Origin: Staphylococcus phage LY01
DNA: 64,000 nucleotides
Sequence record: OR836606.1
Strand: one strand, 5' to 3'
Every line of letters starts with the position of its first letter. Positions within the stretch are counted from its first letter, which is position 1. Below, one piece after another: positions 2,844 to 25,234 of the stretch. A program made the position numbers and the translations under genes. The notes under the pieces are model-generated. The model saw only the letters and a list, made by a program, of their open reading frames with translations. It was not told the DNA's origin and did not search any database.

Positions 2844-3626
2844 TTATATATTATAAATTAAAGTCTTCAGTTTTGCAACAAATTTATCCTGATAAATTGA
2901 AAATTTTAACATAATCAATTCACTATATACATCTGTTTCTGGGGCATAGATATCTATTTTAACTAAAGGACAAATTATTTTATCTTTAGACTTTTTATAT
3001 TTTAACCCTAATAAATACTTTTTAGAAGTTCTAAAATCAATAAGGTAGTCTTTTTCATTATAAATATAATAAGGGTCCTTAACAATAACTTTGTCTTTGG
3101 TAAATATAAATTTAAAGAACTCGGAAGGTTTCCTTTCTTTAATATCTAATAAACTATCATTATCTAATTTAAAATTTAGACTTGGTTTAAAAGAACTAAA
3201 ATAATTAATAGCTTCTAATGAATAATTTAATTCTTCATCTAATCTATCTTCATCAAATTCATCATTATTAATAATAGTTTCTAAATCAGATTCTCTAGTT
3301 ATTTTAATACCACTATTATCAATTTCATTAAAAAATTCAACTTTAATAATTTTATCCCCTTTATTCTTTCTTACTTCAATAAAATCTTCTACATTAAAAA
3401 TGCAATTTTCAACAGGTAAAAGATAATCATAAATTGGATTATCTTCTATAATTTCTACTTCGACTGCATTGGGATTGTCATCTGATTTAGAATAATTTTT
3501 TATAATGTTTTTATTTAAACTAATATACTTACTTCCATCAACAATATTATTGAATAACTTAGATATCTCTTCAAAAGTCATTACTAATTTATTTACTATT
3601 TTTGATTCTTCAATAATAATGGACAT
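2844..3626 (-). CDS. hypothetical acidic protein (260 aa), translationally coupled to the upstream polB-N gene
   Basis: ATG overlaps stop of upstream gene (TAATG at 3626); no recognisable motifs; contains no polB motifs B/C. Confidence 0.5.
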   Translation of the reverse strand: MSIIIEESKIVNKLVMTFEEISKLFNNIVDGSKYISLNKNIIKNYSKSDDNPNAVEVEIIEDNPIYDYLLPVENCIFNVEDFIEVRKNKGDKIIKVEFFNEIDNSGIKITRESDLETIINNDEFDEDRLDEELNYSLEAINYFSSFKPSLNFKLDNDSLLDIKERKPSEFFKFIFTKDKVIVKDPYYIYNEKDYLIDFRTSKKYLLGLKYKKSKDKIICPLVKIDIYAPETDVYSELIMLKFSIYQDKFVAKLKTLIYNI

Positions 3627-5642
3627 TAACCAATTTCCCCCTCTAATTCTTTAATGATATCATCAGAAGCTTCAATAAGAGAAGGTAAACCATGAAACTC
3701 TTGAGCAAAAGCAACACTGTCTTGACTATTAAATTTACTTACGAATTCAGTATTAAAATCATAATTATCTTTATCTTGCTCATATTTAGGTACCGTTATT
3801 CTATCTTTATCAAGAATATTCATCTTACCTACATGTCCTTCAGGTGTTATATTAAATGCTCTAATAATAGATGGATATAGAGAACTTAAGTCAAAGTCAC
3901 AAACATTACTAAATAATCTATTAGATCTAATATCTTTACCTTTAACCAATACGTCTCCATTACGTTCGATTAACATCATATCAGCTACAAATCCGCCACG
4001 AATTTTATCAGCATTAGGATCCGATAATAATTTTGAATGATTATTGCTTAATACATATCCTTGATTTTCAAAGAATACTGAACTACGATTTCTTAAACAA
4101 ATAGTTTTCTTAAGTGCTTTACTAGGTCTTGTTCTAGTCATGTCTACAATAGAGAATAATAGATCAAACATATTAGTGTTATGTTCAATCAATGCAGCTA
4201 ATACAGTATCCTTAATATTATAAAGAATAAATGTATAGTAATCTCTAAAATGTAAATCAGAGATAGAACCTTCATATACATCTTTAGTAACTCCTGCTTC
4301 TTTTTCTCCAATATCATTTAACTTAACTGATTCCAAAGCACCATTGGGCTTATTAATATTTGCATATAACGCTAATTGGTCAATCCAATTAGTATAAGAA
4401 TTAGTCTCAAATGTAGAAGATCTATTAGCCATATCAGTAGCATTTTTATCTAATTTATAATATGCTTTTTTATCTTCAAATTCTTTAGAACAGAAATAAT
4501 CTGCAGGATTTTCTCCATTAGCTCTAATACGTTCAAATATTGCAGGAAAGTCATAATCTAGCTTTTATATTTATTAAATATAAAATAGACTATATCATAC
4601 TCATTAATATGAGTGAATATATTTAGTCGTTGAACAACTCTTATTAAGTTGATGCTGATCATTCTAAAAAGAACGTTCCAGCAATTAATATTCTTTTAAT
4701 GGAACCTATTATCAATTCCATGCAGTACATATGTCAGGCTTACTAATTTCATTAATATAATATAAGAAAGATTTAATTACTTGCATTTCTGTATCTAATT
4801 CATATATCTCAAATTCTAAACCTAAATTTTTACCAATTTCACTATTTTCATTATTATAAATTTCATTTAAGTTTTTAATTAATTTATCTTGATCTTCCAT
4901 AGTTTCTTTATAAGTGTCAGTGTCATATTTAAGAGCAAATGTTAATACTTTTTTCTTACTCCAATCCACTACAGTTATAATATTTATCTCTGCCTCAGCT
5001 TTAAGCGGGTCCGGGACAATTTGTATTAAAAGTAATACAAATTAGACTATATCTTCTTAGTAATATATTTAGTCGTTGAACATTAAATTTTTAATGATGC
5101 TGATTATCTTAATAAAGAATTTCCAGCAATTAATATTATTTTATCTGAGCTACCTTTAACCCAGTTACTTGAGATCCATCAACCTCAATATCGAATAGAC
5201 ATATATCTATACCAACTTTACTGTCTAAATTCTTTTTAATATACTCATTGATATTATAATCTTCTATATTTATATCAGAACCATGAGCATTATTTAATAA
5301 ATGGAAATCTTTTAGTTTTCTATATTCTTGCCAATTACCTGACTTCATAATTCTATCGTATTCTGCTTTATCTTGAGAATTACCAGCTTCTTTAACTACT
5401 GATTTGATAATATCTTTATGCTTACAAATAACAGTTCTTACTTTATCTTTTTCAATAGAACCTACAATTTTATTAGGAGGTAACCAATGTTCATCTTTAG
5501 TTACATAATAATGCATCATAGGATCTGTTATTTCCATATGTTTTTTAGTACCATCCTCTTCTTTAACTACCATTACTACTTTTTCTTTACCAGAAGCAGT
5601 TTCTTTTTTATTTAAATATGTTGATTTAATGAATCTTCCCAT
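3626..5642 (-). CDS. family B DNA polymerase, N-terminal half (3'-5' exonuclease plus palm motif A); three exons approx 5159..5642, 4715..5016, 3626..4561 interrupted by two miniature group I introns
   Basis: Exo I LFDIEV; then F-PDPLKAEAEINIITVVD matching T4 gp43 FPDPMKAEYDIDAITHYD; Exo II region AWN|LDYDFPAIFERI collinear with T4 GWNVESFDIPYVYNRI; motif A DFDLSSLYPSII. Frames are interrupted exactly at the two intron elements. Confidence 0.8.
4562..4714 (-). ncRNA. miniature group I intron (~153 nt) in polB-N, between Exo II codons ...AWN and LDYDF...
   Basis: mRNA sense: 5' exon AUGGAAU pairs with IGS GGUUCCAU (terminal U-G), P UAUUAAUUGCUGG, Q AAUCAGCAUC, P6 hairpin, R UGUUCAACGACUAAAUAU, P8 hairpin, S GAUAUAGUCU, then A-rich tail ending AUAUAAAAG| (omega-G). 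Stop codons at both intron ends; flanking exons in same phase. Confidence 0.75.
5017..5158 (-). ncRNA. miniature group I intron (~142 nt) in polB-N, between Exo I (FDIEV...TG) and F-PDP
   Basis: P1: exon CUGGGU pairs IGS GCUCAG with terminal U-G; same P/Q/R/S core as the other copies; phase-1 junction regenerates UUC (Phe) before PDP as in T4 (KF-PDP); proposed 3' end ...CAAAUUG|. Confidence 0.65.
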
Positions 5643-5724
5643 TTATCAATTCCACTCCTTAATTCAAATGTTACTTTGATAATTTAAACGTTATCTAGAA
5701 TTTGTAAAAAATTAAAATATAAAT

Positions 5725-5754
5725 TGCCAAACATTCTAATTTAAGAATGTTTGG
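5725..5754 (-). terminator. rho-independent terminator hairpin (gccaaacattct aattt aagaatgtttggc) followed by U-run on minus strand
   Basis: Perfect 12 bp inverted repeat plus T-rich tract in the minus-strand direction. Confidence 0.5.
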
Positions 5755-5761
5755 CTTATTA

Positions 5762-5917
5762 AATTAAATAAACAATGGTTCTTCCATAAAAGAATCCTCA
5801 GCAGTATCAACTTCATCTTGTTTATAAATTGTCTTATTTAAAAATAATTTAGTGGCTATTGTTGAAGATATAAATAATATAATTGATATAAAAATGATTA
5901 ATAATTTCTTTTTATTC
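5762..5917 (-). CDS. small predicted membrane protein (~51 aa, MNKKKLLIIFISIILFISSTIATKLF...)
   Basis: Short ORF with N-terminal hydrophobic helix, below the ORF-track length cutoff; terminator immediately downstream. Confidence 0.3.
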
Positions 5918-5958
5918 ATAGAATTTCATCTCTCCTCTAGATATAAAATAAAGTCTTT

Positions 5959-6156
5959 TTAGAAAAATGTATTTTTAACATTTAGCATTTCAATTCGTTT
6001 ATTAACGATATTAATATCCTTTTGAATTTCTTCTAATTTATCTTTATCAGGGCCATTAGTATGATGTGCTCCATTATTTAATATAATTTGGTAGTGTAAT
6101 TTATTAAATCTTTGAACTAATTTCATTTCATCTAATTTGTTTGTTTTATTTAACAT
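5959..6156 (-). CDS. hypothetical small protein (65 aa)
   Basis: ORF track; tightly spaced upstream of SbcC-like gene cluster. Confidence 0.35.
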   Translation of the reverse strand: MLNKTNKLDEMKLVQRFNKLHYQIILNNGAHHTNGPDKDKLEEIQKDINIVNKRIEMLNVKNTFF

Positions 6157-6171
6157 ATTATCATCTTATCC

Positions 6172-8907
6172 TTAATTTACTTTAAATAATACATTTTTGC
6201 CTTGCATCATTTCTTTATCATTAATGTCAATTTTACTTTCATAACCTTTAAGTAAAATTAAATCAATATCAGCGCTATAGAATTCATCGTTATGACTAAT
6301 TAAAAATACCTGTTCAAGACCCATTAACTCAATTTGCCTGTCTATCACATCAACAAATCTTCTTCGGTTATGAGAATCTAATGTACTATCCATTTCATCT
6401 AAGTAAAGAATATTATAATCTTGAGAAACTTTATTTAATAATGATAATGATAAGCTAATATTAGTTAAAGCTGTTTCTCCTTGGGAAGCTTCTTTAATAT
6501 CTTTAAGCTCAGTTCCATTACCTTTATATACATTGATAAAGAAATCTTTATCTGTCAAATCAAAATCAATTTTAAATGAATTATTATAAGCTACTGAAAG
6601 TAATTCATTAGTACTTACTGCAATATCTTTAAGATAGTTAGTAATGAATATTAATGGTATAGAGTCTTTCTTAGGATTTAATGAATCTACCACCATATTA
6701 TATTTCCATAATACTGATTCAATTTCATCAATCTTAGTAATAATAGAATTAACTGCAAAATATTTTTCTTTAGTGGATTCTAAATCATTTTTCTTCATAG
6801 TTAAATTATCTTTAATAGATTGAATCTTATTATCTGCTTTCTGATTAAGTTCATACAAATTGCTTAGTTTTGAAAGATCTTTATCAATATCATTAACTAT
6901 ATCATTTTTATCTTTAATTTTTGATTTAATTTCTTCAGATTTCTCTGTTAAATTAATAAATTCATTAATAATATTTAAGTTAGTGATTGCTTTTTCTTTA
7001 CGACCATTAAGGTAATTAAGATTCTCAGAAATTTCATTATTTTTATTTTTAATTTCTTCAATTTGTTTAATTAAATCTTCTTTATCTTCTTTATATTGAT
7101 CTAATATTTTCTTATTAGAATAATCTTCTTTAAGAGCATTTTCTTTTCTTTCTAATTCAATAGTCAATTTATCTCTATTAGTTTCATTAGTACGAATTTC
7201 ATTTGTCTTTTCAATTAATGAATTAAGACTATTTAGTTCACTAGAGAATGTATTGCCATTAGTAAATATTTCTTCAATACTATCAATATTAATTATTTCA
7301 AACCCAATATATTTAATTAAACTATTTCTACTAGTAAGTATATCATTGAATTTACGTGATAAGTCAATATGATTAGATAATAGTTTATTATCTTTTTCTA
7401 ATTCTTGATTATTTTTATAAAGTTGATTACCTTTATTTTCTAATTCAGAAATTGAATCAAATTCATTATCTTTAAAATCAGCTACTAAAGGAACAAATAC
7501 ACATTCATTATAGTGTTCATGATCTTTTTGTTCCAATATTTTTAATAAGTCTGATTTACCTTTAATTTGATTAAGCTTAGTATTAATTTCATTAAATTCA
7601 TTCTGGTTCATAGAAATTTTTTCATTATTACCTTTAATTTCTCTTTCAAAATCTCCATGAATAGAATTATATTTGAATTCATTATCATTAATGAATTCTT
7701 TAAAGTTATTTATTTTAGAAATTAAATCATTTACATATAATCTTAATGAATCTTCTTTAATATTATCTTTAATCTGTAATCCGAATTCACTTACAAAAGA
7801 CCCTCTAGAAATATCTACATCCTCTTTAATACCTTCTAAATCTTCTTTATACCCTTCAAGAATTGAATCAATTTCATCAGAAGCATCATAATCTTCATTA
7901 AACTTAATAGCATTCATACGAGATTCTATTTTAGATTTTCTACTAATTAAATCATCTAATTTATCTTGATTATTTTCTTTATCTTTTTCAACAGAAGTTA
8001 ACTCGTTATTAGTGTTATTTAATATAGTATCTATTTTATCTTTTTTATCATTAGCAGATTCAATAGTATATTTATTTAAATTCTCATTATCTTCTTTTAA
8101 TTTTCTTTCTTTTTCTAATTTTTGATTAAGTTCATTAATTTCATTAATTAATTGATTTTTATATTCAGTTGGATGAATCTCTTTGTATTTATCTTCCATA
8201 ATAGAGTTCATCTTAGTTTCATGAGTTGTTTTATCTTTATTAGCTTCATCAAGTTCATCCTGTAATTGATCAATTAAAGTTTCTAAATTCTCTTTTTCTT
8301 TTTTAATTTCATCAAATTCTTTATATTTATCTAAATCAAATCTAAGTGATTTTAAATCTTTAGTAATAACTCTTAATTTCTCATTAGCTACTTTATAAGC
8401 TTCTAAGTATCTATCAATGTTAGGTACAAATTTATTAATATATGATTTACGATCACCTGTAGTATAATCGATAAAGTTTGATACATTATCGCCTAAACGT
8501 CCTACAGTAAAGTATTCTTTAGATACACCTAATTCTTTATCTACTATTTCATTAAATAATTTAATGCCACCATTTTCATTGAGTTCTTCACCATTCTTCT
8601 TAATGAATGATTTATTTTGAGAACTATTTTTTCCATAGTGATGTTTAATTTCATAAAGATCATTATCTTTAATATAATCAATTTCTTTTAATCCTTTTTC
8701 ATTTTCTATGATAATATCTCTTCTTTGGTCATTAGATTCTCTATAAGGACTTAATTGAGAGAGTATGACAGTTTTTGAGCTTCCATTATCTCCAAGAAGC
8801 ATTATCATATTATTTTTACTTTTACTAAAATCAATTTCAACTTCTTTTAATCCCATACCAGCATAAATGCCGATAAAATTCTTTAACTTTAATCTTTTAA
8901 TCTTCAT
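6172..8907 (-). CDS. SbcC/Rad50-like recombination ATPase (T4 gp46 analogue)
   Basis: N-terminal Walker A LLGDNGSSKT, very long coiled-coil middle, C-terminal signature SQGETALT and Walker B/D-loop LYLDEMDSTLD ... FLISHN. Confidence 0.8.
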   Translation of the reverse strand: MKIKRLKLKNFIGIYAGMGLKEVEIDFSKSKNNMIMLLGDNGSSKTVILSQLSPYRESNDQRRDIIIENEKGLKEIDYIKDNDLYEIKHHYGKNSSQNKSFIKKNGEELNENGGIKLFNEIVDKELGVSKEYFTVGRLGDNVSNFIDYTTGDRKSYINKFVPNIDRYLEAYKVANEKLRVITKDLKSLRFDLDKYKEFDEIKKEKENLETLIDQLQDELDEANKDKTTHETKMNSIMEDKYKEIHPTEYKNQLINEINELNQKLEKERKLKEDNENLNKYTIESANDKKDKIDTILNNTNNELTSVEKDKENNQDKLDDLISRKSKIESRMNAIKFNEDYDASDEIDSILEGYKEDLEGIKEDVDISRGSFVSEFGLQIKDNIKEDSLRLYVNDLISKINNFKEFINDNEFKYNSIHGDFEREIKGNNEKISMNQNEFNEINTKLNQIKGKSDLLKILEQKDHEHYNECVFVPLVADFKDNEFDSISELENKGNQLYKNNQELEKDNKLLSNHIDLSRKFNDILTSRNSLIKYIGFEIINIDSIEEIFTNGNTFSSELNSLNSLIEKTNEIRTNETNRDKLTIELERKENALKEDYSNKKILDQYKEDKEDLIKQIEEIKNKNNEISENLNYLNGRKEKAITNLNIINEFINLTEKSEEIKSKIKDKNDIVNDIDKDLSKLSNLYELNQKADNKIQSIKDNLTMKKNDLESTKEKYFAVNSIITKIDEIESVLWKYNMVVDSLNPKKDSIPLIFITNYLKDIAVSTNELLSVAYNNSFKIDFDLTDKDFFINVYKGNGTELKDIKEASQGETALTNISLSLSLLNKVSQDYNILYLDEMDSTLDSHNRRRFVDVIDRQIELMGLEQVFLISHNDEFYSADIDLILLKGYESKIDINDKEMMQGKNVLFKVN

Positions 8908-8963
8908 TATCCAGTTTCAACTCCTATTGATAAATATATTTCCGTTATTATAAATTTTTAATT

Positions 8964-9764
8964 TTATTTAAAATTATTTTTCACTAAATATTCTCTAACA
9001 AATTTTTCATCGGTAATTTCTTCAAATATATCATCTAAATCATCTTCAAAAATATTTATTTTATAACTATGATGATTATTATTAATAACATCATAATCAT
9101 AAACATTTAGCATATCTAAAAAAGAGGCTTTAGAAAAGAAAAATTCAATATTAAAATGATGTCTTAATGATTTTAATAAAATAAGATAATTATTAAAGAT
9201 ATCTTTAATTAAATTCTTAAAATCATCATGGTGCTTTATATTTTGATCTTGAATTTCATTTAATAATTTTTCAAGATTGTCAACTAATATCATTCGTTTT
9301 ATTTCTATTTCATCTTCTTCGTTTAAAATATCTTTTATAATACTATTAAATAAAATTTTATCAATTTTATTTTTTATAGGTTTGATTGTAAATAGTATTT
9401 TATCATTAACACTATTTTTATCTATACTAAAAATAGATTTAGTAGAATCTCTTTTAAATTTAAAATCTGCAATAGTTATAAGTGTTTCAAATGAATTTTT
9501 ATTATTAACATTGTAAAGAACAGGAGGTAGACATCTTGGTAAAAATTTTAAATTGCCTTTAATTGCATTATCTTCTTTTTTATAATGAACATCTATTGCA
9601 AGAGTTTCATATGAATCTTCTTCAGTCTGATTAATTATTTTTTCAGCTATTATTAAAGGTAAATAGTCATATAAAAATGAACCTCTATTATTCTTATCAA
9701 CTTCAAATAATTCATCATTTATTTTACATAAGAAATATTTTTTATCACTTTTCATTGCACCCAT
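8964..9764 (-). CDS. paralog-family protein A (266 aa) with conserved C-terminal tail FEEITDEKFVREYLVKNNFK
   Basis: N-terminal KKYFLCKINDELFEV and C-terminal HHFNIEFF...NNFK shared with 8 other genes; conserved gene junction TTTAAATAAAGGAG...ATG. Confidence 0.7.
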   Translation of the reverse strand: MGAMKSDKKYFLCKINDELFEVDKNNRGSFLYDYLPLIIAEKIINQTEEDSYETLAIDVHYKKEDNAIKGNLKFLPRCLPPVLYNVNNKNSFETLITIADFKFKRDSTKSIFSIDKNSVNDKILFTIKPIKNKIDKILFNSIIKDILNEEDEIEIKRMILVDNLEKLLNEIQDQNIKHHDDFKNLIKDIFNNYLILLKSLRHHFNIEFFFSKASFLDMLNVYDYDVINNNHHSYKINIFEDDLDDIFEEITDEKFVREYLVKNNFK

Positions 9765-9778
9765 TATATTGATCTCCT

Positions 9779-10558
9779 TTATTTAAAATTATTTTTCACT
9801 AAATATTCTTTAATAACTTTCTCATCTGTAATTTCTTCAAATACTCCAGATATTTTATATTCATCAAACAAATTATAATATTCATCATCTATATCATCAT
9901 TATTTCTTTTATCATTCTCTGGTATGTGCGAGAAACAACTATCTGATACAAAGAATTCTATATCAAAATGTGATCGGATTTGTGATAAAATTTCTAATAT
10001 ATAACTATTTACTTCGGTTAATATTTGGTATAAATCTTTATTATTTTTAAAATTAGTTTCTTTACTATTATTATAATCTGATATTAGATTTTCAGGACTT
10101 TCTATAGGTAAATTAAAAGGTATTTTTAAGATATTATCATTATCTAATATATTACCAATGACATTATTGAAAAATATTGAAGTTACATCTGGATTATATA
10201 TGGGTTCAATTCTAATTTTCAAACAATTTTTATTTTCTATTTTTTCATTGAATATAATATCAAAATCAATATTAAGTATATTTATTCCTTCTTTATTACC
10301 AACCTTATATTCTAAAAATGGAAAAATATTGCCAACTGATATAATTCCTGACCATAAATTATTTCCATTACTATCTTCACCCACAATCTCTTCAGAAAAT
10401 ATATCTATTTCTTCACTTTTTATTTGTAAATTAGGAAGTAAATAAGGTAGATATAAATGATCTTCATTTATACCATATCTAGATAAGTTATTAACTATAA
10501 ATAACTCATCTGTCATTTTACTTAAAAAATATGTTTTATCACTTTTATTTATACTCAT
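9779..10558 (-). CDS. paralog-family protein B (259 aa), tail FEEITDEKVIKEYLVKNNFK
   Basis: Same family; 3'-terminal ~60 nt nearly identical at DNA level to neighbours. Confidence 0.7.
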   Translation of the reverse strand: MSINKSDKTYFLSKMTDELFIVNNLSRYGINEDHLYLPYLLPNLQIKSEEIDIFSEEIVGEDSNGNNLWSGIISVGNIFPFLEYKVGNKEGINILNIDFDIIFNEKIENKNCLKIRIEPIYNPDVTSIFFNNVIGNILDNDNILKIPFNLPIESPENLISDYNNSKETNFKNNKDLYQILTEVNSYILEILSQIRSHFDIEFFVSDSCFSHIPENDKRNNDDIDDEYYNLFDEYKISGVFEEITDEKVIKEYLVKNNFK

Positions 10559-10574
10559 TAAATTGATCCCTCTT

Positions 10575-11279: not shown

Positions 11280-11300
11280 TATGAAAATCCTTTCTTTATA

Positions 11301-12110: not shown

Positions 12111-12111
12111 A

Positions 12112-12888: not shown

Positions 12889-12915
12889 TTACTTAACTCC
12901 TTTTATTATAATAAT

Positions 12916-12941
12916 CCCAATACTAATTTAATAGTATTGGG
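12916..12941 (-). terminator. terminator hairpin cccaatacta...tagtattggg (same arm sequence as hairpin at 25676-25706)
   Basis: 10 bp inverted repeat downstream of 12993..13370 gene. Confidence 0.45.
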
Positions 12942-12992
12942 ATAACATTTTTATAATATATATTTATTCTAATTTTCAGAATTAGGCGATAC

Positions 12993-13370: not shown

Positions 13371-13519
13371 TACTTATTGCACTCCTTTTCATTGTATTCA
13401 TGAACTTCATTAAGATGTCTATGGTCATGATAAATAAACATGCAATCTTCTAATTTAGGTTCATATCTCTTTTTAGTTAATAATTCATATAATCTTTTTA
13501 ACATGATAAACCTCCTTCC

Positions 13520-13861: not shown

Positions 13862-13915
13862 ATTCTCTCCTCCGATATAATATAGCTCCGTAATACATTA
13901 TAGAGATAAAATTAA

Positions 13916-14695: not shown

Positions 14696-14751
14696 TTATT
14701 TTTTCAACTCACTTCCATCATATTAATTAATATAAAAGAAAGTTAATTAAA

Positions 14752-15390: not shown

Positions 15391-15406
15391 TAAGTTATTC
15401 TCCTTT

Positions 15407-16015: not shown

Positions 16016-16165
16016 ATCTTTTCCACTCCCTTAATTAGATTAATATAGAGATAATGAATTAATATAATTCATTATCTCATTTTTATAATATATATTTACA
16101 TACATTTTTCATCTAAATAAAAGAGATAACGGACAATTATAGTCCGTTATCTCATCTTTTTAAAT

Positions 16166-18712
16166 TTATTCTTTAGTTAAAGAGTATAAAGCTTGTACCA
16201 TATTATTTATGATAATTAGACTATATCTTCTTAGTAATATATTTAGTCGTTGAACAACTTATATTAAGTTGATGCTGATTAATCTAATAAGATACTTCCA
16301 GCAATTAATATTATTTATTGAGAGCATACAAGCATGTTACTCTCATTACCCAAATTACGTACTGAATTACCAGTGTAGTTTAGGTAGTTAGTTTTCTTAT
16401 TAAGAAGTTTATTAGCTTCTTTATTAGCCTCTACAGTCCAGAGAGATCTGATAGAAATCATATCCATTTACGTTATCTATATTAAGATAATATAGATCAG
16501 ACTATATCTTTACTTTAATAAGCATATTATATTTAGTCGTTGAACACTATTTGTAGTGATGCTGATTAAGATAATAATCTTTCCCAGCAATTAATAATAT
16601 TTAAATACGGCAATATAAATTACCGTCAAACGTTTATGTTATCTATAATAAATGATATCATAGACCAGACTATATCATCATCTCAATTGAGATATATTAT
16701 ATTTAGTCGTTGAACAACTTATATGAAGCTGATGCTGATTGCTCTAATAAGAGTTTTCAGCAATTAATAATATTTTCATTCTTAAATCACTTTAAGAAGC
16801 GACTTTTTCAAATCGGCACCTAACGCTATTTAATTTATAATTAAATTTGGACTATATCATAAACCTAAATATTAGGTTCCCTCACACTTCGGGAATTCAT
16901 TTCCCTACTCTACTCACTTCGTTATAGTATTTCAACTATACTTATTCTCTATATAAGAGTTACATTTATTGTTTTCGATAGTCTCTGAACGTTTATCCAT
17001 CATGTGGATACTTCGCTGCTAGACTTTCCCATTATTAAATACCCTTAGCATTTTCAGCATAGGTCATCAAAGAGATTTTTTCTGTCTTTCGACTGCATGT
17101 CACGCTATCCATTACTGGCATACGTTGTAGCTCTCTAAGCATTAGGGTTTACAAGCAATTCATAAGGTATTTTTTATCCTATATTACTATAAGACTGGAG
17201 CGTAAGTTACTCCGGCATAACTGTTGTGTATAATAGCGGTATCTATAAATACATCTTCATCAACAGGATATTCATGAACAACTTTAGGATAATCTTTAAG
17301 TACAATATCGTCTAAAGTAATTTCAGGAATTGTATCAACTGTAGTCAATATTTTAATTTTGGCAGGTGCAACATTCAAGAAATTTTCGCAAACTATATTA
17401 AATTAATACAGATCAGACTATATCATTACCTACTTTTAGGTATATTATATTTAGTCGTTGAACAAGTTTAATTGACTTGATGCTAATTAACCTATTAAAG
17501 TCTTTTAGCAATTAATAATATTTTCATTCTTAAATCACTTTAAGAAGCGACCAGTGTATTAATCGGATATCTTGAATAAACCACATGCTTATCTTCACAT
17601 ATTTCTGTAGCAGCTATATAAAGTAAATCAATTACAGTAAAAGTTCTACCTAAAGTATTTTCAAATAATTTAACTTTATGACGTTTACCTTGTCTATCAT
17701 TTACATATATAGGACTAAATCTTTCATTAGGATCCTTAATAAAGAATTCTAACATATTCTTAATAGCTTTATCATCAAACTGTTCATATACTTCTTCTAA
17801 TGATAATTCATTTTCATCAGTTCCAGTAGCGGTTTGGAAGGCATCTTTGTGGATTTCAATAAAATCGATAATGTATTTGCTAAAGAAAGGTAAGAATAAA
17901 GTAACTAATTGAGTTAATGGTACCCCTAACTGACCAAATTCAATTTGCATTTCATCCCATTTATTTGAATTAATCTTAGGTGAAGAAATAACTGAGCGAG
18001 TACTGTTATCTACCGTCTTACCTAAAATATTTCTTTGCATCATACCAGTTTTACCTGATAGTTCTCCTGAAGTTAATTTAACGTATATTTCAAATAATTT
18101 ATTTTGAATATTATATTTAGTCGTATTAGCTACAAAGTCAAATGAATTAAAACTAATTGAATCTACAGATCTTAAGATGCTTGCATACATATCATTTATT
18201 TCTTCAGTATCTTGAATTTCCCCTGAAGTTTCATTAGGATTAAAGTCACGATAGAAAGCAGGTATTACGAGCCATTTATCTGTGAATATTCTATCTTTAG
18301 GAGTATTTTTAAGCATATCAATTTTTTCATTTCGGATACGAGAATCATTTTTTCTAAATTTAAGATTTTCATAATTATCGTATAAGAAATTTAATCCAGT
18401 TTCACCATTTTCATCTGGAACTAATTGTCCTTTCTCAATTTTAAAGTAATCAGAACCTTGAATACATAGATCTATATTCTTATCTAATTCTCTCATAGCT
18501 TTATAAGCTACAGGATTCAAGTATTTGCCACCTAAATTAATCCAACCTATATTATTCTTTCTTTCATCAGTACCTATTAAACCAAATATTTCATATGAAA
18601 ATAAACCATCTTCTTTAGGTAAAGTTCCTGAATCAAAGAAAATAGGATTAGTAACTTCTTTAGCTCCATAAGCTGTAATAACTTGATCAACATTAACCAT
18701 ATCTATTTTCAT
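16166..18712 (-). CDS. multisubunit RNA polymerase beta-prime-like subunit, N-terminal fragment; six exons approx 17561..18712, 17192..17388, 16812..16825, 16622..16630, 16349..16464, 16166..16198 separated by five group I introns
   Basis: RNILGKTVDNSTRSVISSPK matches RpoC NLLGKRVDYSGRSVIVVGP; SRYPI ~ NRAPTLH; spliced model reads ...SLGAD|FDG|DMISIRSLWTVEANKEANKLLNKKTNYL, collinear with E. coli [34 protein letters not shown]; gene ends ...NLGNESVQALYSLTKE* near the YYMTRD-equivalent point. Confidence 0.7.
16199..16348 (-). ncRNA. miniature group I intron (~150 nt) in RNAP beta-prime-like gene
   Basis: P1: exon GAGAGU pairs IGS GCUCUC with terminal U-G; P/Q/R/S core; 3' end ...AUAAUAUG| leaves in-frame terminal exon VQALYSLTKE*. 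Confidence 0.65.
16465..16621 (-). ncRNA. miniature group I intron (~157 nt) between FDG micro-exon and DMISIRS exon
   Basis: P1: exon GACGGU pairs IGS GCCGU with terminal U-G; core P/Q/R/S; 3' end ...CGUAAAUG| is the only junction that restores the third Asp of DFDGD in frame. Confidence 0.7.
16631..16811 (-). ncRNA. miniature group I intron (~181 nt) between ...LGAD and FDG
   Basis: Exon CCGAU| pairs IGS GUCG (U-G). 33 nt 5' segment GUCGCUUCUUAAAGUGAUUUAAGAAUGAAAAUAU is identical to the intron at ~17390-17560. 3' end ...AUAAACG| is the only phase-0 G downstream of an in-frame UAA. Confidence 0.65.
16826..17191 (-). ncRNA. group I intron, ORF-less (~366 nt), larger relative of the miniature family and of the IStron intron core
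   Basis: P AUGAAUUGCUUGUAAAC, Q AUCUAGCAGCG, R UUCAGAGACUAUCGAAAAC, S AUGAUAUAGUCC; compared with 24270-24600 the 5' P1-P2-P3 segment, R/P7 and the S/3' segment are largely conserved, P5 and the central domain diverge; putative P1 GUCU|-GGAU; proposed 3' end UUAAAUAG|. Confidence 0.65.
17389..17560 (-). ncRNA. miniature group I intron (~170 nt, boundaries +/- 10 nt) between SRYPI... and ...ENFLNVAPAK
   Basis: Same core; shares the 33-nt 5' segment and the CCGAU| - GUCG P1 arrangement with the intron at 16631-16811. Two phase-consistent junction pairs are possible, so the ends are approximate. Confidence 0.55.
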
Positions 18713-18798
18713 TTAATACTTCACTTCCAATCTAATTTTATAAAAAAATAAATATATAAAAGCCATGTTAAGCTATAAACTTAACATGGCAATAATTA

Positions 18799-19551
18799 TT
18801 AATTAACTAAGCTGTTACTCATATAACTAAAATAATTTAAATCTATTTCTTTTTCTTTAGCTTTCATAATAGTTGCTTCATCTAATTTTTGATTATATCC
18901 TAATGAAGGAATATCAATACCGGTCTGCATAACATTATCACAGTTCATTATAATATCTTTAATATTACTAACCTCGTCTTCATATATTCTAGTAACATAC
19001 CCTAATGTGTTAATTACATCTGATTTCTTTTCATCTGATTCAAGATAATAAATATCAACCTTTTCCATACTTCCCCTAAATAAAGTTTTTAAAAATCTTT
19101 CTTTAGATTTTAAGTTATTGTCAGAAGTCTTAGTTACAATTGACAATTTATTCATTAAAGGAGTATTAATTGTATATGACAAACTTTTAGCTAGATTTGT
19201 TGGCTGTAATGTATCGTATAAATCTTTTTTAAATACAATTTCTTCGTGAAGTTTATTTCTAGCTTCATTAACTTCATCTTCAGAAAATCTTTCATAAACA
19301 TCTTTTCTCACTAACCATTGGTCAATATAATATTCAGGACGATTGAGAACTGTATTGTAATGAGTGCTATAATTATAATCTGGAGATAGTCTGAAAAATT
19401 GATTGTAATAATCAAAATCTTCATGCATTAATTGAACAATTTTAGGTGAAATATTCACTAAAACTTCATCGCAATCAACAACTATATGACCTGTATTCAT
19501 TTCGTTCTCTTTATACATATAATTAAAATTCTCCTTTGTCATAATCTTCAA
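18799..19551 (-). CDS. HAD-superfamily 5'(3')-deoxyribonucleotidase-like protein; true start probably internal (MNTGHIVVDCDEV, ATG ~19500)
   Basis: HAD motif I VVDCDEV (DxDxV) about 10 residues from the likely N-terminus, as in NT5C-type nucleotidases. The ORF-track start at 19551 overlaps the upstream gene by 29 nt. Confidence 0.45.
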   Translation of the reverse strand: MKIMTKENFNYMYKENEMNTGHIVVDCDEVLVNISPKIVQLMHEDFDYYNQFFRLSPDYNYSTHYNTVLNRPEYYIDQWLVRKDVYERFSEDEVNEARNKLHEEIVFKKDLYDTLQPTNLAKSLSYTINTPLMNKLSIVTKTSDNNLKSKERFLKTLFRGSMEKVDIYYLESDEKKSDVINTLGYVTRIYEDEVSNIKDIIMNCDNVMQTGIDIPSLGYNQKLDEATIMKAKEKEIDLNYFSYMSNSLVN

Positions 19552-20863
19552 TGAATCTATTTTTTAATTCTTTTATTTTATCTTCATGAAATTTAGTTTG
19601 TCTAATTTTAAAAGGTTTAGTGCTGTCAAGAAAATCTGTTGAATGAATATTTTCTTCATCAACTAAAGTCATATATTTAGGATTAGTTGTATTTAGTGCA
19701 TCATATAAATCAAATTTATTCTTTTTCATAAGATTGTATTTATCTTGAGTCATTAAAACTGAATAATAAATATCCTTTAATTTAACTGATCTTCTGTAAT
19801 TAGAAGGATCTTGTAAACCAGGTGTTTCTTTAGTATTAGTTATAATTCCTTTACCATGATACTCCTTACCAATATAATAAACTAAATAAATGAACCCCAT
19901 ATTATCTTTAACGCTAAATAATCTATATCCATCTTTATTTTCATCAAATACCTCATAAATATTCCAATCATTAATTACTCTACGCTTAGCATAATAGGGT
20001 CTATTTTCTGGTTTTAAATGATATGGTTGTCCTCCAATACTAAGTCGTTTCTCATATTCTTCTTTTTCAAGTTGTTTAATATAAGTTTTACTAAATTTAT
20101 CCAAAACAATTGAATGTTCTTCATCAAAACTTTCATAATTATAATTAAAAGGTAATACAATCCTAAAAGTTTTACTTGTACATCTATATAAAACTTTACT
20201 TAGATTTTTTTCATTTAATTTAATTTGGATTTCATTAGTTTCTTCATTATAATTAATATCTTCATCATTTATAGAATATAGACTTTTAGTAATTACATTA
20301 AATGTAATTGGATTAACGTCTTCAATCATATTAATAATGATTAAATTTCTTTCATAATCTATATATGCTAACATGTTATACATATCTAAGTTAAGTGAAT
20401 CAGGGTCATACTTATCCTTTGTTTTATGAGGATCTCTAGCCCATACCTCTAATTCTCCCGCATTTTTAATTTTTAATTTAGAATTATCTTTTAATGTGAT
20501 ATCTTTAAGAAAATCTTTACCAATATGATTTCTACCAATCTCATTTAATAATATTGCTAGTTGATGTTCAAATAACTTAGGTATATCTTTCTCTAAAGTA
20601 AAGAAATAACAATCATTATTAAAATTATTTTTATTGCTTTTACGATATTCCTTTAATAAATCAACTAACTCTTTATCTTCATTAAATCGAATAATATTAT
20701 CAATAATAAATCTATTTTGATCAAATCTATAGAACCATGTCCCATTATCATCCATTTTTCTTAACTTAGCCGGTATTTTTCTACCATTTTTTCTGTATAA
20801 ATTCAAATTTTTACTAAATACATCTGACTGTTTTGCCATAGCATTAATACACTCCATTTTCAT
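19523..20863 (-). CDS. hypothetical protein (446 aa)
   Basis: ORF track; no motif recognised. Confidence 0.45.
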   Translation of the reverse strand: MKMECINAMAKQSDVFSKNLNLYRKNGRKIPAKLRKMDDNGTWFYRFDQNRFIIDNIIRFNEDKELVDLLKEYRKSNKNNFNNDCYFFTLEKDIPKLFEHQLAILLNEIGRNHIGKDFLKDITLKDNSKLKIKNAGELEVWARDPHKTKDKYDPDSLNLDMYNMLAYIDYERNLIIINMIEDVNPITFNVITKSLYSINDEDINYNEETNEIQIKLNEKNLSKVLYRCTSKTFRIVLPFNYNYESFDEEHSIVLDKFSKTYIKQLEKEEYEKRLSIGGQPYHLKPENRPYYAKRRVINDWNIYEVFDENKDGYRLFSVKDNMGFIYLVYYIGKEYHGKGIITNTKETPGLQDPSNYRRSVKLKDIYYSVLMTQDKYNLMKKNKFDLYDALNTTNPKYMTLVDEENIHSTDFLDSTKPFKIRQTKFHEDKIKELKNRFIEDYDKGEF

Positions 20864-21050
20864 TTATTTAAAAATGTATCTTAAAAAAGATACATTTCTA
20901 TTACAATTTTATAATATATATTTTAACATAAATTAAAAATTTATGCAAGAAATTTTATATGAAAGTTGATAAATTTTTCTAATTATATAAAATCAATTAT
21001 TTTATCTGAATACATACCAATATTTTCCAATATGTATCCAGATAAATTAT

Positions 21051-24000
21051 TTAGAATTTAATCATATTAGATACAAATGAACTATTTGAAGATTCCAATA
21101 CTCTAACACCAATAGATTCAATAATATCTTTACCTGGTTTAATATGATCTTCAATCATACTATCATAGTCAATAAAAGGTCTAAACTCTTCAGGAATTGT
21201 ATTACCTTCAACTGCAATTACATTTAAACCGTTTTTAACTAAACTTTCATTCTTAAATACTTCTCTAAATCTATCTAAAGTATCTTCATCAGTTATCTTA
21301 TTTTTAATATCTCCAAATGTACTAATATTCAATTTAACTGCTAATATCTTAGCAGGTAATGCTATTTCTTTTTCTGGGAACATTATATTCCATGCTAAAG
21401 CAGCTCTATATGCCATTTGAGAATAAGGGTCTTTATATACCTCAGCATTATTAGCTTTAAACGGTTTTAAGAATTCGATTTCTCCATTATCTAATGATTT
21501 CTTAATCATTTCTTCTATATCTTTAAATTTACGTATTATCTTAATACGATCTACACCGGTTTTATTTTCTAAAATATCTTTTTGTAATATTTCAGTAAAT
21601 AGTTCTCTAATACGTTTATTAGTATTAACTTTTCTAATAGCCATACCTTTAACATCTAAATCTGGAGGTTGAATTAAATTACCCTCTTGTTGAATTACTG
21701 ATGATGCATAAGTTTTCTTTTTATCAGTTGTTAATTGTTTATCAAGTAAAACATTTTTATTAGCTTTATTAAATTAATAAAGATTAGACTATATCTTATA
21801 CTTATATTAAGTACATTTATATTTAGTCGTTGAACTTAATTTCTTAAGCTGCTGATTTAATTAATGAACTATTCCAGCAATTAATAAATTTATCTTTCTG
21901 TATATCGCTATACAACGGAGCATTAACTTGATAATACTCATTTTTCATTGATATTAAACCTAAATGTTCTTCCTCTAATCCTACATCTTTACAGAATCTA
22001 TAGTAAGACAATTCTAATAATTTAGTTATTTGATAGTTAATAATAGATATATTACTTACACGTTGTTCTAATTTATCCTCTAAACCATTCTCTGCAATTG
22101 GAAAATCTTCAGGTTTTAAAGATTTAAATTTTTCGTATAACGGATCTAAGTGAACAAAGTTCATTTATGTTAGCTGTATCAAATATAATACAGATCAGAC
22201 TATATCTTCTTTAGAAATATATTTAGTCGTTGAACTTAATTTCTTAAGCTGCTGATTTGATTAATAAATCATTCCAGCAATTAATATTTTTTATTGACAG
22301 CAATTTTTTATCACAACTGTCAGTATCTATAGTTAATACGCTTCTACGTTTCTTGTAATTCATTCTATACATTCTATTATAATCTTGATAATTATATATA
22401 ACCCAATCTTTTAATATTTCAAATAATTCATCTAATAATGGAATCATATCTTCAGGAGGATCATTTGGATCTAAGAAATCTTCTCTGCCAGTCATTTTAC
22501 TAATTTTATTATCAAATATATCGGTATGATCAATTAACCCAAATAAATTATTTTTGAAATATACTTTATTTTTATCTTCTTGACTTAATTTACTAAATAC
22601 TTCTTCTAACTTAAGAAAATCTTCTTCACTATAATCTTCTTCAACATTAGAAACTAAACCTTCTAAAATTTCTTTATCAGTTGGAATTGATTTTATCTTA
22701 ATATCATGATCTTCATATTTTTCACTAATTATTCTTAATATATAATGATATATTTCATCAATCTTCATGAAAAAGATTTTACCGCCAATAAATCTTTCTA
22801 AAGCTATCGCTGAAGTAGTTACAATATCAACTGCTATATAAATTCGTGAATTTAATTTAATTAATTCGAATTTATTCGACTTCGTCATTACTTTTACTTA
22901 CTTTGCACTTTAAGTTTTTCGTTATAAACTACTTCAACATAAAGTGTCAACCAAAGCAGAGGTTAAAGCTCTTAAGTCATCACATTTGGACATTCAAGAG
23001 AATTTAAATCTAGTTAGCCTGCCCAACAAAACGCTTACCGTACATTTTGAGGTTGACAGCAGCGTTATAATCTCTATCCATTTTATTTCCACAATCACAC
23101 TTATACCATCTATCTGATAACTTCATCTTATTTTCTTTAGTTAAGACTTGACCACAATTAGAACATAATTGAGTTGATGGGAACCATCTATCTGCTACAA
23201 TAATAGTATTACCATTGCTTTCAGCTTTTTGTTTTAATAAAGTTCTGAATTGTCTCCAATTCATTGCAGAAATAGATTTAGACAAATTTCTATTTTTAAT
23301 CATATTTGAAACTTTAAGATCTTCAATTGTAATATACTGATAATTTTTAATTAAGTTAGTAGTTATTTTATGAAGATAATCTTTTTTAATGTTATTAATT
23401 CTCATCCATATTTTTTGTATTTTGGTTTTCAATACATTGTATTTGTTAGAACCATAAACTTTACGAGATAATCTTTTTTGATAGTACTTAATCTTATTGT
23501 ATAGTGGAATCAATTTATCATTTAATGAATGATATTTCTTAAATTTACCGAAATCATCATTAATGATAGCTAAATCTTTTACACCTAAATCAATACCAAC
23601 ATGGCTATTGTTATGAATTAAGCTCTTATTATTATCAACTTTCATTACTATTGAAGCGAAATATTTTCCAGCATATTTAGATATAGTAACTTCTTGAATG
23701 GAATTATAATTAAACGGGATAGATTCTTTCATTTTAATTAATGAATTAATTCCTTGAAGTTTTAATTTATTATTTTTATCGCCTTTAATTTGTAATGAAT
23801 AATTATTCTTCTTATAGAACCTTGTACTTAATTTAGAATGTTTTTTAGATTTAAATCTCGGATACTTACCGTAACCTTTCCACATCATATTAAAAGCTTT
23901 ACCTAAATCTTCAGTTGCTGTGTCCATAACTTGAGATATTTGATCTTTTTCCCAATCTTCTTTACATTTTTTAAGTTCATCACGAACTTTCCTATGTGTT

Positions 24001-25234
24001 GGTTTTGGAAGAGATGTATCAAGTTGATGAGCATTCCACATTTGTTTCCATTTATTAAGCCCTTTATTATAAATATATCTAGAATATCCAAATGCTTGAT
24101 TAAATACTTCTTTTTGTTCTTTATTTGGTTTCAATTCGATTTTAATAGATTTGTACATGTGATTTCACCTCCTTCAAATATATAATATATACTTAAAGTT
24201 AGTGATGAATTTTAATTAAATTAAACTCACGAATTCCTGATTTAGTGTTTCCACATCAGTTAAATAGCAAGACTATATCATATTCTATCAGAATGATAGA
24301 ACCCTCGCACTTCAGGAATATTATTTCCCTACTCTACTCACTTCACATAGTATTTCAACTATGCTTATTCAGGCGTTAATCCTGTGCTTTCGATAGTCGT
24401 TGAACGTTCATCCATCATGTGGATGCTTCGCTGCTAGATTTTCCATTAGTCCACCCTTAGCACTTAATTTACATTAAGCTTTTATTTCAGCCTAGGTAAT
24501 CTTAGAGTATTTTTTCTGATTTTCATCTGCTTTCACGCTATCCATTACTGGTATACGTTGTAGCTCTCTAAGCTTTAGGAGTTTACAAGCAATTCACGAG
24601 GTTTGCTCACTTCTTTCATGAATTAAACTAACTTTAATTCACTATGAAGTAAGGGAGTTTTGATTAACTATTTTAAAATAATTTAAGTGAGCAATTCGTG
24701 TTAAATCACTTAAATTATATTAAACTAAAATAGTTTCTTTTCTCCACTATAAGTAGTTGCTGGACCTGAATTAGCATCATAGAATGTACTATTTTTCTGT
24801 ATCATAGCACCGTAATAACTGTTAGCTAAGATCTTAATTGTTTTTTGTTCATTCATATATTTATCATGTAAAACATCATCTTTACCTTTATAAATAAACA
24901 TATTGTGCTTAGCTACTTTACGAGAATCTATAAAGTCTTTTAACATTTCCGCATTTAAATTTTTTCTTTGTGATTGAGGCTGATAAATAGAACCAGAACC
25001 AGTTACAATTAAATTATTATTAATAATTTGTCTTAAGGTTGTATCTACATTCATTTTTTGTCCTGATATTTCTATTAAAGCTGGATCTAAATGTTTTTTA
25101 ATATATTCTCTACAGGCATTAATTAGTTTCTCATCATCAATATCAGGTTTTCTTATTTTAATTAATTTAATTAAATTTTCTAAATAACCCGTTATAGCCC
25201 TTTTACGTTCATATTTATTATCTTGATTAGACAT
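21051..25234 (-). CDS. family B DNA polymerase, C-terminal half (motif B, motif C, KKxY, thumb); exons approx 24745..25234, 22316..22885, 21915..22161, 21051..21763, interrupted by an IStron-like intron and two miniature group I introns
   Basis: Motif B KTIKILANSYYGAMIQKNSTFYDANSGPATT (T4: [29 protein letters not shown]); TTSAIALERFIGGK (T4: TTFGQMALQWIERK); motif C VLTIDTDS at the exon/intron junction; KKKTYA (KKRYA); C-terminus FIDYDSMIEDHIKPGKDII...MIKF (T4: WMDYTVLLEKTFIKPLEGF...FDF). Confidence 0.75.
21764..21914 (-). ncRNA. miniature group I intron (~151 nt) in polB-C, upstream of the KKxY motif
   Basis: Core P/Q/R/S present with the variant Q ...AAUCAGCAGCUU; 3' end ...UUUAAUAAAG|CU regenerates UCU (Ser) with a phase-1 5' junction after ...NAP; the upstream ORF 21844..22164 reads through the intron P element as INCWN...LIKSAA*. 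Confidence 0.55.
22162..22315 (-). ncRNA. miniature group I intron (~154 nt) inserted immediately after polB motif C (IDTDS|)
   Basis: P1: exon GACAGU pairs IGS GCUGUC with terminal U-G, placing the 5' splice site directly after the AGU codon of DTDS; core P/Q/R/S; 3' end ...ACAUAAAUG| (G of the apparent ATG of ORF 21844..22164); downstream exon NFVHLD parallels T4 IYVSAD. Confidence 0.7.
22889..23120 (-). ncRNA. putative TnpB guide RNA scaffold (omega RNA / right-end RNA) overlapping tnpB 3' end and extending to the 3' splice site
   Basis: Locally GC-richer structured segment (GGCAGGCUAACUAGAUUUAAAUUCUC...GGUUGACACUUUAUGUUGAAG) between tnpB stop and polB exon; inferred by analogy with IS605 elements. 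Confidence 0.35.
23010..24158 (-). CDS. tnpB: TnpB (IS605 OrfB-family RNA-guided RuvC nuclease), 382 aa, embedded in the IStron-like intron
   Basis: RuvC-I HVGIDLGVKDLA, RuvC-II YITIEDLKVSNM, zinc finger CSNCG...CDCG, RuvC-III RDYNAAVNL; no tnpA nearby. Confidence 0.85.
   Translation of the reverse strand: MYKSIKIELKPNKEQKEVFNQAFGYSRYIYNKGLNKWKQMWNAHQLDTSLPKPTHRKVRDELKKCKEDWEKDQISQVMDTATEDLGKAFNMMWKGYGKYPRFKSKKHSKLSTRFYKKNNYSLQIKGDKNNKLKLQGINSLIKMKESIPFNYNSIQEVTISKYAGKYFASIVMKVDNNKSLIHNNSHVGIDLGVKDLAIINDDFGKFKKYHSLNDKLIPLYNKIKYYQKRLSRKVYGSNKYNVLKTKIQKIWMRINNIKKDYLHKITTNLIKNYQYITIEDLKVSNMIKNRNLSKSISAMNWRQFRTLLKQKAESNGNTIIVADRWFPSTQLCSNCGQVLTKENKMKLSDRWYKCDCGNKMDRDYNAAVNLKMYGKRFVGQAN

Follow-up and report, generated by a model that had tools for sequence, protein, structure and literature searches.

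A family B DNA polymerase divided between two intron-interrupted genes in Staphylococcus phage LY01, with a TnpB-carrying IStron in one of them

The stretch of 64,000 nucleotides (nt) from Staphylococcus phage LY01 considered here (sequence record OR836606.1; this whole stretch is hereafter called the window) carries a family B DNA polymerase (PolB) encoded by two separate genes on the same strand, both interrupted by introns, one of which is an IS607-type IStron containing an intact tnpB open reading frame (ORF). The window is 81-91% identical at the DNA level to the Staphylococcus jumbo phages PALS_2, Madawaska, S6, MarsHill, PB50, and Machias; the G+C content of the region is 20-28%, and the minus strand carries every gene from 1 to 33 kb. 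Staphylococcus jumbo phages of the PALS_2/MarsHill type have been described as kin of the uracil-DNA Bacillus phages AR9 and PBS1 (bioRxiv 10.1101/2020.12.14.422802), and the source of the window is itself an AR9/PBS1-like, uracil-DNA Staphylococcus jumbo phage.

The two polymerase genes, referred to below as the C-half and the N-half according to the part of the enzyme for which they code, each have their own start, stop, and AAGGAG ribosome-binding site (Table 1). From the stop of the C-half (21051) to the start of the N-half (5642), the gap amounts to 15,408 nt, with the C-half lying upstream in the direction of transcription. The initial annotation of this DNA had already placed the two halves at these minus-strand positions, with the C-terminal half first and the N-terminal half, ending in ELEGEIG, about 15 kb downstream, and all of this is borne out by the spliced genes. 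Its count of two or three introns per half was also right, two being present in the N-half and three in the C-half, but one of them had not been recognised as a TnpB-carrying IStron.

The exons were mapped by tblastn and blastn against the uninterrupted PALS_2 gene PALS2_195, coding for 644 amino acids (aa), and against the N-half pieces of PALS_2 and PB50. Once spliced, the N-half is aligned with the uninterrupted S6 gene as a single, full-length, ungapped tblastn piece (96.9% identity), and the same holds for the C-half with PALS_2 (97.4%) and with S6 (96.4%). After splicing, neither frameshifts nor indels are left, and the ratio of nonsynonymous to synonymous substitution rates (Ka/Ks) is 0.047-0.067 for the window halves compared to S6 and PALS_2. 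Such single ungapped pieces against intron-less orthologues, in combination with a low Ka/Ks, indicate that the halves are functional, constrained genes and that the junctions are right; the exon/intron structure is far above chance level.

Table 1. Coordinates of the two polymerase genes, their exons and introns, and associated features in the window (a slash within a sequence marks a splice junction)
Feature	Position	Strand	Details
C-half gene of the split PolB	21051..25234	minus	Fingers, palm motifs B and C, KKxY, thumb; 4 exons, 3 introns; 644 aa spliced
Exon C1	24742..25234	minus	3' end ...TATAGTGGAG; AAGGAG ribosome-binding site ~13 nt before ATG at 25234
Intron C-I	22831..24741	minus	1911-nt IS607-type (group B) IStron; group I ribozyme and tnpB; 22 codons past motif B; 3' terminus ...TTTATATAGCAG
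IStron group I ribozyme	~24741..24260	minus	Q box near 24438, R box 24405..24394, S box 24279..24270
Inverted-repeat stem, 5' arm	24212..24235		Partner of 22841..22864
tnpB ORF	23010..24158	minus	382 aa, intact, within intron C-I; Pfam HTH_OrfB_IS605 1.9e-13, OrfB_IS605 3e-21, Cas12f1-like TNB 2.1e-19
Inverted-repeat stem, 3' arm	22841..22864		AU-rich, encloses tnpB
Exon C2	22316..22830	minus	Begins TTGATATT; 3' end ...ACTGACAGT, coding for DTDS
Intron C-II	22162..22315	minus	154 nt, ORF-less group I; right after motif C, DTDS/N, phase 0; 111.6 bits
Exon C3	21936..22161	minus	
Intron C-III	21752..21935	minus	184 nt, ORF-less group I; MKNE/F, phase 1, in the invariant MKNEF block; extra P2 hairpin; 104.5 bits
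Exon C4	21051..21751	minus	KKKTY, thumb, C-terminus ...NMIKF then stop
Virion RNA polymerase β' intron	17560..17388	minus	Group I
Virion RNA polymerase β' intron	17209..~16826	minus	Group I
Virion RNA polymerase β' intron	~16811..16631	minus	Group I
Virion RNA polymerase β' intron	~16621..16465	minus	Group I
Virion RNA polymerase β' intron	16342..16200	minus	Group I
Terminator-like hairpin	5726..5755	minus	Directly upstream of the N-half gene, setting it apart from the preceding genes; 12-bp stem, 5 GC pairs, T-rich tail
N-half gene of the split PolB	3626..5642	minus	N-terminal domain, 3'-5' exonuclease Exo I-III, palm motif A; 3 exons, 2 introns; 573 aa spliced
Exon N1	5159..5642	minus	3' end ...ACTGGGT; AAGGAG ribosome-binding site ~11 nt before ATG at 5642
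Intron N-I	5017..5158	minus	142 nt, ORF-less group I; VTG/FPDP, phase 1, 7 codons past Exo I; P8 nearly absent; 105.6 bits
Exon N2	4715..5016	minus	
Intron N-II	4562..4714	minus	153 nt, ORF-less group I; within Exo II, AWN/LDYDF, phase 0; 130.3 bits
Exon N3	3626..4561	minus	Exo III, motif A, tail ...ELEGEIG then stop; TAA stop shares 1 nt with ATG of the next gene (TAATG)

As first proposed, the two spliced proteins jointly cover one T4 gp43-like PolB. The exonuclease motifs Exo I, II, and III and the polymerase motifs A, B, and C are each found once across both: the N-half contains Exo I (FDIEV, aa 150-154), Exo II (NLDYDFPAIF, aa 262-271), Exo III (YNIKDT, aa 376-381), and motif A (DFDLSSLYPS, aa 484-493), and the C-half contains motif B (KILANSYYG, aa 134-142), motif C (IDTDS, aa 332-336), and KKKTY (aa 422-426), in addition to the thumb. 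In the same way, the Pfam DNA_pol_B profile is matched over its positions 59-87 by the N-half and over its positions 92-199 by the C-half, the two halves abutting. The N-half is matched by RB69/T4 gp43 (E=1.9e-11), residues 107-337 and 404-459 of RB69 gp43 being aligned, while the C-half is a member of the Pfam family divDNApol (PF20286; E=2e-53, 182 bits for a cut-off of 25.7). The profile of this C-half family in turn matches residues 448-565 of an archaeal PolB (E=2e-15), the fingers and palm of archaeal, eukaryotic, and poxviral PolB being matched. The break point falls after the helix of motif A and before the β-strand leading into the fingers. Since the motif A and motif C aspartates are thereby carried by different polypeptides, the active site would be assembled across the subunit interface, and the catalytic site is thus predicted to be completed only where the N-half and the C-half meet.

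Regarding the C-half family, an insertion of ~140 aa is present between motifs B and C (aa ~190-325, window ~22750..22350), so that K134 and D333 are ~200 aa apart, versus ~55-60 aa in RB69 and archaeal PolB. In the profile comparison, HMMER paired the archaeal YADTDG with the non-conserved FMKIDE (aa 185-190), whereas the invariant DTDS of the C-half sits at aa 333-336.

Four of the five polB introns (N-I, N-II, C-II, and C-III) are small group I introns devoid of any ORF. They contain the group I boxes P (AATTGCTGG), Q (AATCAGCA), R (GTTCAACGACTAAATA), and S (GATATAGTC), and in all four the final U of the 5' exon is paired to a G of the internal guide and the final base of the intron is G. 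Unconstrained minimum free energy folds give P1, P4, P5, P6, P7, P8, and P9, with z values of -3.1 to -4.3, P3 having been checked by eye only. A group II assignment was rejected, as GUGYG...AY and domain V are missing and the introns do contain P, Q, R, and S boxes. At the protein level, the N-I junction restores GFPDPLKAEAEI, which is aligned with GFPEPSQAKHPI of RB69 gp43, and the exact restoration of the ORFs with respect to the S6 and PALS_2 genes suggests that the four small introns are self-splicing. All five polB introns sit in or beside catalytic or most conserved motifs of the enzyme, which is where mobile introns usually insert.

A covariance model was trained on the eight mini-intron copies of the window. 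It recovers these eight copies together with 14 further ones in the PB50, Machias, and Madawaska loci, and gives zero matches in the loci of PALS_2, S6, and AR9. In the resulting alignment of 22 members, which was fitted to the model and leans for this reason toward structure, 98.2% of the cells are paired and 22 of the 33 pairs show compensatory changes, a level reached by none of 500 shuffles, while slid controls are 27-46% paired. Besides, the 12-mer of the R box occurs nine times in the window compared to 0.17 expected occurrences.

Two of the mini-introns of the window, at 5158..5017 (142 nt) and 16342..16200 (143 nt), are virtually without P8, only TTACTAAGAAG being left between P3' and J8/7. 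Both are shorter than the Azoarcus group I intron, which is 205 nt long. They are also shorter than the 184 nt reported as the minimum for the tRNA group I introns of Patescibacteria (PMC13011429). With lengths of 142-154 nt, the smallest of the group I introns rank among the shortest natural examples found documented, and they are candidates for work on minimal ribozymes. Small ORF-less group I introns, with a mean of ~206 nt, are known to riddle the essential genes of the gut 'Jug' jumbo phages and of crAss-like phages (PMC12880540); the mini-introns of the window resemble them in being short, ORF-less, and located in essential genes, but are even smaller, with 142-184 nt. In IMG/VR, the covariance model gives 250 matches (cores of ~110-170 nt) in 80 stretches, mostly contigs of more than 200 kb (most of them 200-400 kb), which are probably related to the 'Jug' phages. 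Some of these matches follow each other in tight tandem, with for instance eight of them within 2.5 kb in one stretch (L085), thereby implying further micro-exons. The 18-mer of the R/P3 box alone is found in 82 IMG/VR stretches, and the composite P-Q-R mini-intron pattern has no match in IMG/VR.

The remaining intron, C-I, is an IStron, that is, a group I ribozyme combined with a tnpB ORF. The three Pfam domains of its TnpB all score above cut-off, and the translation shows the RuvC and zinc-finger motifs (GIDLG, IEDL, and DRDYNAAVNL, and CxxC...CxC). The inverted-repeat arms enclosing tnpB are 24 nt long, 96% complementary, and 1347 nt apart. A second ORF corresponding to the IS607-type ORF A (serine recombinase) was not found within the IStron. 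The IStron with its flanks reads GTGGAG/AAAAGAA...ATATAGCAG/TTGAT; its termini are common to an element of the Listeria phage LPJP1, and removal at GGAG/...CAG/ gives TYSG/VDIV exactly as in PALS_2, whose intron-less junction reads TATAGCGGTG/TTGATATTGTAAC. This junction was retained because the termini are shared with the LPJP1 element and because of the group B IStron rules; the other possible one, GGA/G...GCA/G, was rejected, since the intron would then lack a terminal G and the 5' exon a U. An assignment to the IS200/IS605 type (group A, TTGAT target) was also rejected, TTGAT being on the wrong (3') side and subterminal palindromes of the group A type being absent. Homologues of the ribozyme region are an ORF-less intron elsewhere in the window and introns in other phages. 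TnpB itself is at most 42.5% identical to its nearest phage homologue, and an exact look-up in public assemblies gave no record of the protein. The IStron was not found in any other sequenced Staphylococcus jumbo phage, and its 5' end (GGAGAAAAGAA...CAAAACTCCC) has no match in IMG/VR.

Group B IStrons are characterized by a GG-containing target ending in G, by a 5' exon ending in G rather than U, by a 3' end reading CGG or CAG, and by a stem of inverted repeats of 15-34 bp, more than 80% AU, around the ORF, and IStrons have been catalogued in Clostridium botulinum phages (PMC4227781). For IS607-type IStrons, the splice sites are the transposon ends, and TnpB together with ωRNA promotes retention and homing of the element (Žedaveinytė et al., PMC10690162). 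The window IStron follows this organization: like BcISt1, CbISt3/4 (from the C. botulinum phages c-st and D-1873), and CboIStron, it has a 5' ribozyme, a tnpB within an AU-rich stem, and a ...CAG end, its splice sites coincide with the element ends, its GTGGAG insertion site is as in group B, and its 1911 nt compare with 1915 nt for BcISt1. The absence of ORF A is shared with CsISt1, which carries ORF B only (PMC4227781), and distinguishes it from the LPJP1 element, where a 209-aa ORF stands at the ORF A position. It also differs from the known group B members in that the first intron base is A and not U, and in its host gene, an essential polB of a lytic Staphylococcus jumbo phage.

Several relatives of this IStron deserve mention in their own right. 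In the virion RNA polymerase β' gene of the window, the ORF-less group I intron of ~384 nt at 17209..~16826 (minus strand) is homologous to the ribozyme part of the IStron and is inserted after the same GGAG; its first base is U and its P1 pairs GGAGU with GCUCC, with a shifted U·G pair as described for group B IStrons. The IStron could descend from this intron, or the intron could have arisen from the IStron by loss of the IS part. The LPJP1 element (MZ422438.1, 219808-223580) is an IS607-type IStron in which the 209-aa ORF is followed by tnpB (a 322-aa ORF). It is placed between a Shine-Dalgarno-like GGAG and the ATG of a chaperonin gene, that is, in a 5' untranslated region and not in coding sequence; the record has no intron annotation, and the GenBank label 'IS607 family transposase' is on the tnpB ORF adjoining the 209-aa ORF. 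Finally, a stretch of 52 nt of the IStron ribozyme core (24383..24434) is 90% identical to an unannotated gap in the Escherichia phage vB_EcoM_TH18 (ON075799.1, 2501-2550), and gaps of this type separate two 'DNA-directed DNA polymerase' fragments in rV5-like coliphages. This suggests that the polymerase gene of these coliphages carries a related, unannotated group I intron.

With respect to the split itself, comparison with other systems is instructive. In AR9, the C-half corresponds to g152, annotated as 'DNA-polymerase catalytic subunit' (125147..127072, minus strand; 36.1% identity over aa 76-644, E=5e-100, tblastn), and the N-half to g132, annotated as 'DNA polymerase; contains DnaQ-like 3'-5' exonuclease and partial catalytic domain' (108407..110071, minus strand; 38.5% identity over aa 30-556, E=7e-93, tblastn), each of these two AR9 genes having its own annotated early promoter. 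The same split, with the break after motif A, the C-then-N order, a single strand, and a spacing of 15-19 kb, is found in AR9, PBS1, S6, PALS_2, PB50, Machias, and Madawaska, and in AR9, as in the window, the genes for the virion RNA polymerase β' and an SbcC-like ATPase lie between the halves. The window halves are 81-97% identical to their Staphylococcus phage orthologues. In PB50, Machias, and Madawaska the halves are likewise interrupted by introns, the exons being already joined in the GenBank records of Machias and Madawaska under the names 'DNA polymerase exonuclease domain protein/subunit' and 'DNA polymerase catalytic subunit', and DNA polymerase subunits have been listed among the intron-disrupted genes of MarsHill-like phages (Korn et al., bioRxiv 10.1101/2020.12.14.422802). 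By contrast, the split polB genes carry no intron in S6 and AR9 and a single, HNH-containing one in PALS_2, as compared with five, including the TnpB IStron, in the window. The synteny comparison suggested in the initial annotation shows a shared layout, and the rarity attributed there to a two-polypeptide PolB was overstated within this clade, since the layout is conserved and annotated in AR9/PBS1-like jumbo phages. The split PolB is the known standard architecture of the clade: the observation is confirmed and its interpretation supported, but it is not new, and as it was already annotated in AR9, MarsHill, Machias, and Madawaska it is not to be presented as a discovery.

Split polymerases of other kinds are also known. 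In T4-like Aeromonas phages (44RR, 25, and AhMtk13a), the polymerase is reportedly split into gp43A and gp43B, and a group I intron is present in the second polymerase cistron of Aeromonas phage 25. There too a T4-type PolB is divided between two cistrons: the N-terminal subunit bears motif A, the C-terminal one motifs B and C. In AhMtk13a, however, 43A runs through APNGMMY and the first finger helix, the break being at the tip of the fingers, and the cistrons are collinear, 43A then 43B, and 53 nt apart, whereas the window has its break ahead of the PNG strand, with 15 kb between the genes and their order reversed; the window split was therefore not assigned to the T4-like gp43A/gp43B type. 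In the divergent PolB of the phiKZ/EL type, the 3'-5' exonuclease is encoded separately (Kazlauskas & Venclovas 2011, PMC3201878). As in the window, the exonuclease and the polymerase are thereby on two polypeptides in a clade of RNA polymerase-encoding jumbo phages, and the C-half is homologous to EL and OBP over aa 326-640 (tblastn), in addition to its divDNApol match. Since both the motif A and the motif C aspartates of EL are reported in the polymerase chain (PMC3201878), the break point differs, motif A being on the exonuclease chain in the window.

Taken together, these data are very probably explained by a two-cistron PolB with five ribozyme introns, whose two polypeptides assemble non-covalently. 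The gene structure, the junctions, the intron class, the selection, and the conservation are direct observations. According to this model, the two polB genes would be transcribed separately, and each pre-mRNA would be spliced by its own ribozymes, namely the four small ORF-less introns and the IStron, whereby the reading frames would acquire the same length as those of the intron-less sister genes. Two polypeptides would then be translated, one comprising the fingers, the palm with motifs B and C, and the thumb, and the other the N-terminal domain, the exonuclease, and motif A, and these would assemble into one PolB with the palm completed across the interface. The model predicts that the introns self-splice in vivo, that the two polypeptides form a heterodimer, and that the two genes are transcribed independently. 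Terminators are annotated in Machias and Madawaska at the position matching the hairpin upstream of the N-half.

Some points nevertheless weigh against this model. A search upstream of the two halves revealed no early promoter motif of the AR9 type (TATATTAT); in addition, the counts of σ70-type promoters are no higher than in shuffled sequence. For the C-half orthologue of MarsHill, the AlphaFold2 model, built from a 12-sequence alignment, is poor, with a mean predicted local distance difference test score of 67 and a predicted template modelling score of 0.43, the lowest confidence being in the palm elements around motifs B, C, and KKxY. A Foldseek search with this model places RB69 and T4 gp43 as its top two matches, which is consistent with a PolB, but these matches are weak (E=0.035-0.089), too weak to serve as evidence. 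None of the five introns is matched by Rfam, whether with RF00028 or with all other families, over the window at the gathering score or over both gene regions at E<=10. This is taken to reflect the limited sensitivity of the models to stripped-down introns rich in AT and does not count against the group I class; since all five introns are missed, automatic annotation will go on giving fragmented 'hypothetical proteins' at such loci. Lastly, the 5' splice site of the IStron has no U·G pair, its P1 consisting of GGAG paired with CUCC and its 5' exon ending in G, a situation known only for group B IStrons, which makes its splicing efficiency uncertain.

This last point leads to an alternative in which the TnpB IStron is not, or only poorly, spliced, so that either the C-half would be made as two separate polypeptides, one of aa 1-164 and the other translated from the in-frame ATG at 22888, or the polymerase of this isolate would be impaired. 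The missing wobble at the 5' splice site and the Rfam result for the IStron speak in its favor, as does the ORF at 22244..22888, which has its own ATG in frame 19 codons before exon C2, and IS607-type IStron copies may splice at only ~2% (PMC10690162). Yet the ribozyme core is intact and shares ~70-90% conservation with both the LPJP1 element and the ORF-less intron of the window; the ends of the IStron are conserved as well, and its precise removal yields the YSG/VDI junction of PALS_2. Furthermore, splicing after G has been shown experimentally for the group B IStron BcISt1 (Tourasse 2014, PMC4227781), and the C-half gene is essential and under strong purifying selection. An unspliced or poorly spliced IStron is accordingly considered unlikely.

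Two further alternatives are essentially excluded. In the first, highly improbable, the halves would be joined after their synthesis by a split intein or by RNA trans-splicing, to which the unaligned tail of the N-half (~40-60 aa) and the unaligned head of the C-half (~75 aa), both extending beyond the PolB-homologous parts, could lend themselves; neither half, however, has a Hint/intein Pfam match or the junction signature of Cys/Ser/Thr plus HN at its ends, a scan with the covariance model detected no partial group I intron where the N-half gene ends (3') or where the C-half gene begins (5'), the stop codon of the N-half runs into the ATG that follows, and the gene order is C then N. In the second, with almost no probability left to it, the halves would be decaying fragments of a pseudogene with the functional replicase elsewhere, for which the heavy fragmentation of the polB genes and the visibility of only 64 kb of the genome could be invoked, but which is contradicted by the Ka/Ks of 0.05-0.07, by the intact frames and catalytic motifs after splicing, and by the retention of both halves from the Bacillus phage AR9 to the Staphylococcus phages. 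In the same line, the second, contiguous full-length polB whose discovery would, according to the initial annotation, have turned the halves into pseudogene fragments is absent from the window, and in the complete Staphylococcus, AR9, and PBS1 genomes each half has a single place and the two are nowhere fused, LPJP1 having two places listed for the N-half. The 13 database homologues of the C-half are 357-760 aa long, so that no fused form was found among them.

Around the N-half, a 260-aa ORF at 2844..3626 (minus strand) overlaps its stop by one base (TAATG), an arrangement kept in PALS_2, S6, and Madawaska; Pfam gives no matches for this ORF and the neighboring genes. In AR9, g131, directly downstream of the N-half gene, is annotated as a DnaQ-like exonuclease.

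Besides polB, the N-terminal gene of the virion RNA polymerase β' subunit (18712..16170, minus strand) is interrupted by five group I introns (Table 1), three of which lie within the codons of the catalytic Mg-binding motif G-A-L-G-A-D-F-D-G-D. Two micro-exons of 14 nt (CGTTAGGTGCCGAT) and 9 nt (TTTGACGGT) result, the intron-less S6 sequence at this motif reading GCCGGAG/CACTTGGTGCAGAT/TTTGACGGT/GATATG.

What is new in the window is the complement of five polB introns, the TnpB IStron inside polB, and the five introns of the virion RNA polymerase β' gene with their micro-exons of 14 and 9 nt. The locus offers a worked example of an essential replicase whose active site would be shared by two polypeptides and whose mRNAs would need five ribozyme splicing events. 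The intact TnpB IStron within an essential gene of a lytic phage is, like the very short group I introns and the failure of the Rfam models on all five polB introns, a by-product of this analysis more useful than the split itself. It may be suggested, as a tentative and rather doubtful possibility, that the polB IStron goes beyond a tolerated parasite and works as an RNA-guided homing element in the competition between phages. An ωRNA, transcribed from the 3' end of the IStron and extending into exon C2 (TTGATATTGTAACTAC...), would direct TnpB to cleave, beside a GGAG-like target-adjacent motif, the intron-less polB of co-infecting sister phages, and the cut alleles would be converted to the IStron form or the replicase of the competitor disabled. 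PALS_2 carries the exact target sequence of the proposed ωRNA, and S6-type phages probably carry it as well. If true, the IStron would be the RNA-guided equivalent of homing endonucleases, the proteins with which jumbo phages are already known to attack one another.

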